DNA from: Escherichia coli
GTDB lineage: Bacteria > Pseudomonadota > Gammaproteobacteria > Enterobacterales > Enterobacteriaceae
Strand: one strand, 5' to 3'
NCBI RefSeq assembly: GCF_030013205.1
Contig: NZ_CP122648.1
Length of the DNA: 64,000 bases
Shown: positions 61,418 through 61,969 of the stretch, piece by piece
Layout: the number at the start of each line of letters is the position of its first letter
How positions within the stretch are numbered: the stretch's first letter is position 1
Notes under the pieces: generated by a model
The model's database searches: none
Told to the model about the DNA's origin: nothing
Seen by the model: the letters and a program-made list of their open reading frames with translations, nothing else
Position numbers and translations under genes: made by a program

Positions 61418-61969
61418 ATGCATGACAATATTTGGTTTACATATAAAGCCCGTATCCAAGCGCACCATCGACTAGAATGGCTTGAAAAGCACTCTCAATT
61501 TATCCTCGTTTGGTATGCTATATTGAGTGCGGTACTTTCAATTGTAACGTTGCGATTTCCAAAAGTTCTAGGAGATAACACAGATATCGTTGCGGCAATA
61601 CTTTCGGTGGCCCTACTGGGTATTTCGCTGATCGTATCTAACCTAGATTTTCGTGGTCGAGCAATAGCCATGAGAAGGAATTATATTGCACTACAGCGAC
61701 TCTATTTTGACATTACCACCAGTCAACAGTTAACTCTTGAACAGAAAGAAAAATATTTTAATTTGCTCAATGAGGTTGAGAATCACCGTGACATAGATGA
61801 TAAAATTTCAAGGGTAACTCAAGTTGGACTTACGACGAGGATCCCCACACAAAAAGAAAAAATAATTGTTATTTTATGGATATTACTTCGAATATTTACT
61901 ACTGCCGCCCTTTATATACTCCCATTAATATATCTTTGGATTGACTATGACTGCAAGCAGAATTTTTAA
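61418..61969 (+). CDS. small membrane protein, candidate effector (possibly SLATT-like)
   Basis: 183 aa; hydrophobic segments FILVWYAILSAVLSIVTL, IVAAILSVALLGISLIVSNL and IIVILWILLRIFTTAALYILPLIYLWI; RBS aaaaagga; 3-prime end overlaps RT start by 29 nt. Confidence 0.7.
   Translation: MHDNIWFTYKARIQAHHRLEWLEKHSQFILVWYAILSAVLSIVTLRFPKVLGDNTDIVAAILSVALLGISLIVSNLDFRGRAIAMRRNYIALQRLYFDITTSQQLTLEQKEKYFNLLNEVENHRDIDDKISRVTQVGLTTRIPTQKEKIIVILWILLRIFTTAALYILPLIYLWIDYDCKQNF

Follow-up and report, generated by a model that had tools for sequence, protein, structure and literature searches.

What does a small membrane protein do when its gene runs into that of a reverse transcriptase (RT), and do the two proteins work together? 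The question is raised by the open reading frame (ORF) at 61418..61969 (+) of a 64,000-nt stretch of Escherichia coli DNA (contig NZ_CP122648.1), called the window below, for which a sequence-only reading had proposed a SLATT-like membrane protein acting as candidate abortive-infection effector of the downstream RT. The answer favoured here, with a probability of roughly 80%, is that this ORF encodes a SLATT_5 inner-membrane effector within a three-part DRT10 anti-phage system carried as prophage cargo, and that the product of the RT would license or activate SLATT.

The ORF runs exactly from 61418 to 61969, from ATG to TAA over 183 codons, and is preceded by a Shine-Dalgarno AGGA 8 nt 5' of the ATG. 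Its product matched the Pfam model PF18160 (i-Evalue 5.5e-28, residues 2-172 on profile positions 9-189 of 192), the NCBIfam model NF033631 over its full length (132.9 bits for a cutoff of 60) and the RT-associated SLATT model of PADLOC (RTasSLATT, PDLC03819; 7.9e-57), while the SLATT_4, SLATT_1 and SLATT_6 models of Pfam and NCBIfam gave weak matches only, below their cutoffs. Homology to some unrelated housekeeping membrane protein was looked for in PADLOC, NCBIfam and Pfam, where SLATT models were the only ones above threshold and no housekeeping membrane family appeared. The ORF is not a chance one since 268 homologues were retrieved at E <= 1e-3, with PF18160 found in all of the best 120 of these 268. 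Three independent HMM libraries and the predicted fold agree, and the membership of the 183-aa protein in SLATT subfamily 5 is thus confirmed, as the family layout recognised by the sequence-only reading had suggested.

Regarding topology, a Kyte-Doolittle scan (19-residue window, a segment being called at a mean hydropathy >= 1.6) delineated three hydrophobic segments, situated around residues 27-47, 55-77 and 148-172, the first two being separated by a loop of ~7 residues, and the 70 residues between the second and the third being predicted helical and rich in charges (12 K/R and 9 D/E). The AlphaFold2 model, built from a 31-sequence alignment (mean pLDDT 86.4, pTM 0.77), is all-helical, with helices at 2-46, 55-76, 78-98, 107-119, 125-134 and 145-182, and agrees with the scan on the two close hydrophobic helices, the charged helical middle and the C-terminal hydrophobic segment that had been described beforehand. 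The top fold matches in AFDB50 are all annotated as SLATT proteins, with TM-scores of 0.8-0.97 for full-length matches, and hydropathy, model and fold matches concur on the SLATT hairpin of two close transmembrane (TM) helices with flanking helical segments. The third hydrophobic helix carries R158 and, in this predicted topology, may not span the membrane. The SLATT alignment profile retrieved no PDB sequence at E <= 10 and Foldseek against the PDB returned only insignificant coiled-coil or BAR-like matches (best E = 0.89), so that these searches provide no solved homologue to guide the mechanism.

The N-terminus, initially considered as amphipathic, did not behave as such: the hydrophobic moment of the segment IWFTYKARIQAHHRLEWLEK is 0.09, a value equalled or exceeded by 4471 of 5000 shuffles. 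A conserved basic helix is the better description; in the AlphaFold2 model (helix 2-46) it would run into TM1, and in it W6, T8, K10, R12, I13, R18 and L19 are invariant or nearly so. Down to 22% identity, K10, R18, Q27, Y33, S63, R81, Y89, Y113, E121-N122-H123, D127 and P169 are invariant in the SLATT alignment and R12 nearly invariant, which by this alignment amounts to a basic juxtamembrane face and a polar ENH...D motif in a predicted cytoplasmic helical domain. This strictly invariant motif (residues 121-127, window positions 61778-61798) is given no function in the available text of the two DRT10 preprints cited below.

The partner gene, at 61947..63317 (+), encodes an RT of 456 aa with the catalytic motif YVDD, which matched the PADLOC model RT_UG17 at 5.9e-159 (527.5 bits, residues 3-458 on profile positions 1-429 of 429) far ahead of the next-best RT model of PADLOC, Drt3a (3.2e-37), and of Drt9 (6.3e-20), as well as Pfam RVT_1 (1.8e-20). 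Its start is the ATG at 61947 in RefSeq, with a TTG upstream at 61941, and the C-terminus reads ...EEDISGIS, the last residue being the putative priming serine S456 when counted from this ATG. The same arrangement of TTG and ATG agrees with the published correction for Eco_3_DRT10, the system characterised by Tang et al., where the NCBI start of the RT is reported to add two spurious residues and to turn S456 into S458 (Tang et al., 2025; 10.1101/2025.10.16.682844). Counted from the ATG, the RT gene overlaps the last 23 nt of the SLATT gene. The association with a defence RT anticipated by the sequence-only reading is thereby borne out for UG17 but not for retrons: as a retron RT the protein was rejected (58.8 bits for retron_St85, whose cutoff is 235), and the combination of a retron-clade RT with an msr-msd non-coding RNA (ncRNA) flanked by inverted repeats was not found.

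The coupling of the two genes extends well beyond this overlap in a single strain. Of the 39 related IMG/VR loci, 38 have a UG17-like RT directly 3' of SLATT, the remaining one stopping at a contig edge; the reading frames overlap at the SLATT stop and RT start in most of them, and the identities of SLATT and RT fall together, from 100/100 down to 29/37%. The YVDD motif is present in every RT detected, and all intact RT C-termini end in Ser, except for a Tyr in two loci (L037 and L038), which parallels Y444 reported for Eco_1 (Tang et al., 2025). Two otherwise near-identical prophage copies deviate from the pattern, one with a SLATT ORF stopping at 1824 and an altered RT C-terminus (L005), the other with an RT match beginning only at residue 157 (L012), and these apparently disrupted SLATT and/or RT genes suggest occasional decay of the cassette.

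A third component had escaped the sequence-only reading, which recognised SLATT and the RT alone, namely a DRT10 ncRNA of 137 nt placed at 61263..61399 (+). Its ends were counted back from the functional positions mapped in the Eco_3_DRT10 ncRNA, i.e. U110, C116, A117 and U119 (Tang et al., 2025), and cross-checked against the promoter and the 3' T-run. The promoter is of the sigma-70 type (61227..61256, +), with TTGACT, an 18-nt spacer, AATAAT and an upstream TG characteristic of an extended -10, hence 10/12 matches to consensus; its second hexamer ends 7 nt 5' of the inferred ncRNA 5' end at 61263, and the element is kept in E. coli relatives. It would serve the ncRNA and probably the whole cassette. 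At the other end, TTTT directly follows position 61399, and the sequence in between folds into a basal stem around four small stem-loops plus an unpaired 20-nt template loop, with a minimum free energy of -54 kcal/mol (z = -4.66) that none of 200 shuffles reached. Promoter spacing, 3' TTTT and a fold with a 20-nt loop together support the placement of the ncRNA, and the window fold agrees with the published ncRNA architecture, in which 20 loop positions were mutated (Tang et al., 2025).

Covariation points in the same direction: over 15 distinct homologues, 93.8% of the cells are paired vs. 50-62% when partners are slid, compensatory changes occur in 14 of the 26 pairs, and for four of five measures the observed value was reached by none of 500 shuffles. 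The upstream RNA is recognisable down to ~41% SLATT identity in the IMG/VR loci. A search of Rfam (Rfam 15, E <= 1) over 60700..64000 gave no match to a retron or any other RNA family, the DRT10 ncRNA being without an Rfam family.

Within the unpaired loop lies a putative template of A-B-A' type, CAAU-GAUUC-CAAU (61369..61381, +), which appears in the DNA as CAATGATTC-CAAT and in the RNA as the template CAAUGAUUC with CAAU directly after it. Both the 9-nt motif and the A/A' identity over 4 nt are exactly those of Eco_3_DRT10, and A/A' is the sole direct repeat of at least 4 nt in the loop. By analogy with that system, A-B would template the cDNA repeat GAATCATTG and A' would realign the nascent cDNA for the next round. 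Downstream, only 18 nt separate the 3' end of the ncRNA, a stem then TTTT, from the SLATT start codon (61399-61417), which leaves no space for a separate promoter, so that the SLATT-RT mRNA probably arises from read-through or processing of the ncRNA transcript.

The template is not constant among close relatives. In a group of E. coli prophage contigs from IMG/VR (L007-L014), SLATT is ~98% and the RT 98-99% identical to those of the window, yet the template loop, located ~45 nt 5' of SLATT, reads GUUCAACGGUUCCAAU instead of GUUCAAUGAUUCCAAU, the B segment differing accordingly (CAACGGUUC vs. CAAUGAUUC in the window). Because these loops differ, near-identical systems should make different repeats. 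Across the clade, candidate repeat periods range from 8 to 12 nt, automatic A-B-A' detection being ambiguous for several loci, such as the L007-type loop, which can be read as GUUC...GUUC (period 8) or CAA...CAA (period 9).

Taken by its sequence, the locus is a DRT10, a system known from earlier work, and is almost identical to the allele characterised there. The UG17 RT and SLATT_5 were predicted to form a defence system (Mestre et al., 2022; PMC9226505), and the set of UG17, SLATT and upstream ncRNA was then named DRT10 (Tang et al., 2025; Sanchez-Nieto et al., 2026; 10.64898/2026.04.29.721553). The window holds a UG17 RT, an adjacent and overlapping SLATT_5, a structured ncRNA with an A-B-A' loop template, and a YVDD motif together with a C-terminal hydroxyl residue in the RT. 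In Eco_3_DRT10, whose RT is OKX54664 (UG17_locus_1574, E. coli 703491; Tang et al., 2025, Table S1), SLATT is identical to that of the window at 182 of 183 residues, position 109 being Q in the window and R in Eco_3, and the two RTs agree at all 399 residues compared, out of 456. The ncRNA is reported there as 137 nt long and 5' of SLATT, its loop comprising a 9-nt template for GAATCATTG and then a repetition of the first 4 nt of that template (Tang et al., 2025); the ncRNA length, the template and its A' CAAU, the 20-nt template loop, the SLATT/RT overlap and the terminal serine S456 are common to both loci. The second system studied experimentally, the UG17-A DRT10 of Escherichia sp. E3659, resembles the window in having an ncRNA, SLATT_5 and an overlapping UG17 RT, all three being needed for defence, and in producing tandem-repeat cDNA from a loop flanked by short direct repeats; it differs by a 7-nt repeat (AGTAATA), a 143-nt ncRNA and, by published coordinates, a 186-aa SLATT and a 445-aa RT (Sanchez-Nieto et al., 2026).

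As for its genomic setting, the DRT10 cassette forms the terminal cargo of a lambdoid prophage integrated into prfC at its 5' end, since homology to K-12 stops within the first prfC codons at ~60707 (window 60640-60760) and the identical region of strain IHE3034 continues rightward into tail-fibre, lom and gpJ genes. The neighbours are the E. coli genes yjjV, yjjU, ytjA, osmY and prfC, and the GC content is 37% for SLATT and 33% for the RT vs. 53% for prfC. The 5' end of prfC and everything rightward of it are prophage-derived, the prophage supplying a substitute N-terminus and promoter region. Between prfC and the cassette, a gene at 60947..61195 (+), annotated as DinI-like family protein, matched phrog_189 (5.8e-31) and stayed under the cutoff of NCBIfam PRK10597 (73.2 bits, cutoff 111); this prophage neighbour is probably outside DRT10. 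On the (-) strand between dinI and prfC, a terminator-like 9-bp hairpin followed by a T-run (60913-60934) overlaps a promoter-like site on the other strand (60882-60911, +). Directly 3' of the RT and before the tail-fibre genes, a 100-codon ORF for a hydrophobic protein (63425-63727, -) matched phrog_1443 (3.9e-58) and had no match in PADLOC or NCBIfam. The cassette was found at a coverage of at least 80% in 187 of 5426 complete E. coli genomes; the query of dinI plus cassette gave these same 187 at this coverage and a partial match in 1797, which indicates that a portion of this query, probably the dinI-like end, occurs far more widely than the whole cassette. Lying between dinI and the tail-fibre genes, the DRT10 cassette resembles an exchangeable cargo slot.

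How such a system works is known in good part from the near-identical Eco_3_DRT10. Its defence is reportedly lost upon deletion of SLATT, mutation of the RT active site to YVAA, or deletion or scrambling of the ncRNA (Tang et al., 2025), which bears out the joint function of SLATT and RT proposed from their tight coupling in the window. The ncRNA is bound by the RT, which uses its C-terminal S456 as the primer of DNA synthesis, copies A-B of CAAUGAUUC, dissociates, realigns on CAAU and repeats, yielding kilobase-length, RT-linked, single-stranded (GAATCATTG)n DNA, and this serine-primed tandem-repeat synthesis was reconstituted in vitro (Tang et al., 2025). In E3659 UG17-A, deletion of sbcB makes the system toxic to the cell, which needs SLATT, active RT and ncRNA together, and the trigger of DRT10 was found to be an SSB-like phage protein; both the SbcB genetics and the SSB-like trigger come from this homologue only (Sanchez-Nieto et al., 2026).

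For the window, the following course can be proposed. The promoter at 61227-61256 would drive the 137-nt structured ncRNA, and SLATT would be an inner-membrane protein whose N-terminus and 70-residue basic helical middle face the cytoplasm. SLATT would remain inert until infection alters the state of the repeat cDNA, e.g. by way of SSB-like phage proteins or by interference with ExoI/SbcB, whereupon it may oligomerise, permeabilise the membrane and abort the infection. The RT product would thus license or activate SLATT rather than act as its antidote. This licensing or activation is favoured partly from the divergent homologue (445-aa RT vs. 456 aa here), and one observation goes against activation by accumulation: in Eco_3_DRT10 the cDNA is constitutive and falls during Bas18 infection (Tang et al., 2025), which fits release from inhibition better, whereas in E3659 UG17-A it rises on infection (Sanchez-Nieto et al., 2026).

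That same fall of the cDNA is the main asset of the best surviving alternative, a toxin-antitoxin arrangement in which SLATT is intrinsically toxic and restrained by the repeat cDNA or the RT-cDNA complex until infection lowers the cDNA and frees SLATT. In retrons, an RT-ncRNA module that holds a toxin in check is the usual arrangement. The neutralisation of SLATT by cDNA is also speculated upon in the discussion of Tang et al. (2025). The test of toxicity and its neutralisation suggested by the sequence-only reading implied this very logic. Yet SLATT-bearing strains whose RT is mutated to YVAA or whose ncRNA is mutant are reported to grow as lawns and to be transformable (Tang et al., 2025; Sanchez-Nieto et al., 2026), so SLATT without cDNA is not toxic at native expression, and the toxicity in delta-sbcB cells requires an active RT (Sanchez-Nieto et al., 2026). 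Because SLATT with a dead RT is viable in both studies, the toxin-antitoxin logic is disfavoured and appears unlikely here.

Less probable still, and to be given only slim odds, is that SLATT serves as an anchor in the membrane or as an accessory, holding the RT-ncRNA-cDNA complex in position or keeping it stable, the toxic agent being the repeat ssDNA itself through SSB titration or replication block, as for the poly-dA of DRT9. The DRT9 cDNA is indeed reported as toxic in itself (Tang et al., 2025; Sanchez-Nieto et al., 2026), the SSB-like nature of the phage trigger would suit this scheme, and SLATT was given only an accessory role in UG3+UG8, UG28 and RADAR (Mestre et al., 2022). However, SLATT-deficient delta-sbcB/sbcB15 cells accumulate cDNA and stay viable (Sanchez-Nieto et al., 2026), so that cDNA alone does not kill; besides, RT and ncRNA make cDNA in vitro without SLATT, and the miniprep-seq constructs were also devoid of it (Tang et al., 2025). 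Finally, a housekeeping or prophage-structural membrane protein (holin-like or for superinfection exclusion) merely lying beside the RT, a view to which the prophage location near tail-fibre genes and the PHROGs entry of the SLATT family as unknown function could lend some colour, is effectively refuted by the exclusive match to SLATT HMMs, the UG17 linkage conserved across genera with overlapping reading frames, and the published phenotype of the SLATT deletion (Tang et al., 2025).

Coming back to SLATT as an effector licensed or activated by the RT product, a more specific and rather doubtful extension would be that the cytoplasmic face of SLATT_5 reads the repeat period of the RT-tethered ssDNA and not its sequence, each repeat engaging one protomer, the cDNA then serving as a ruler that nucleates the pore. 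It is just as tentatively that E121-N122-H123...D127, the invariant K10, R18 and R81 and the nearly invariant R12 could be taken as the reading face. The differing B segments of relatives with 98% identical SLATT, the periods of 8-12 nt and the preservation of the motif down to 22% identity are compatible with such a reading, not proof of it.

The system can be situated among its closest analogues. [quoted passage not shown] Retrons with small transmembrane effectors likewise combine an RT, an ncRNA and a small membrane protein into an abortive-infection-type defence, but they make branched msr-msd msDNA primed from an RNA 2'-OH where DRT10 primes from a protein serine (Tang et al., 2025), and their control logic is that of an antitoxin, in contrast to the apparent activation in DRT10. 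Like the SLATT effectors of CBASS and other conflict systems, the window SLATT has a two-TM hairpin core with flanking helices and is a predicted pore former; it departs from the CBASS ones in belonging to SLATT_5, in its extra C-terminal hydrophobic helix, and in its partnership with an RT and cDNA instead of a cyclic-nucleotide synthase, no nucleotide-sensor domain having been detected in it. The SLATT superfamily as a whole was reportedly defined by Burroughs et al. in 2015.

The locus can now be annotated as SLATT, UG17 RT and ncRNA, with precise coordinates for the ncRNA and its template, and it illustrates that the SLATT-RT class of defence is recognisable from sequence alone. The question that this analysis isolates is how SLATT senses the cDNA and whether pores form. 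Beyond the single cassette, DRT10 is a case of telomerase-like tandem-repeat synthesis by a bacterial RT that uses its own serine as primer and that is coupled to a membrane effector.
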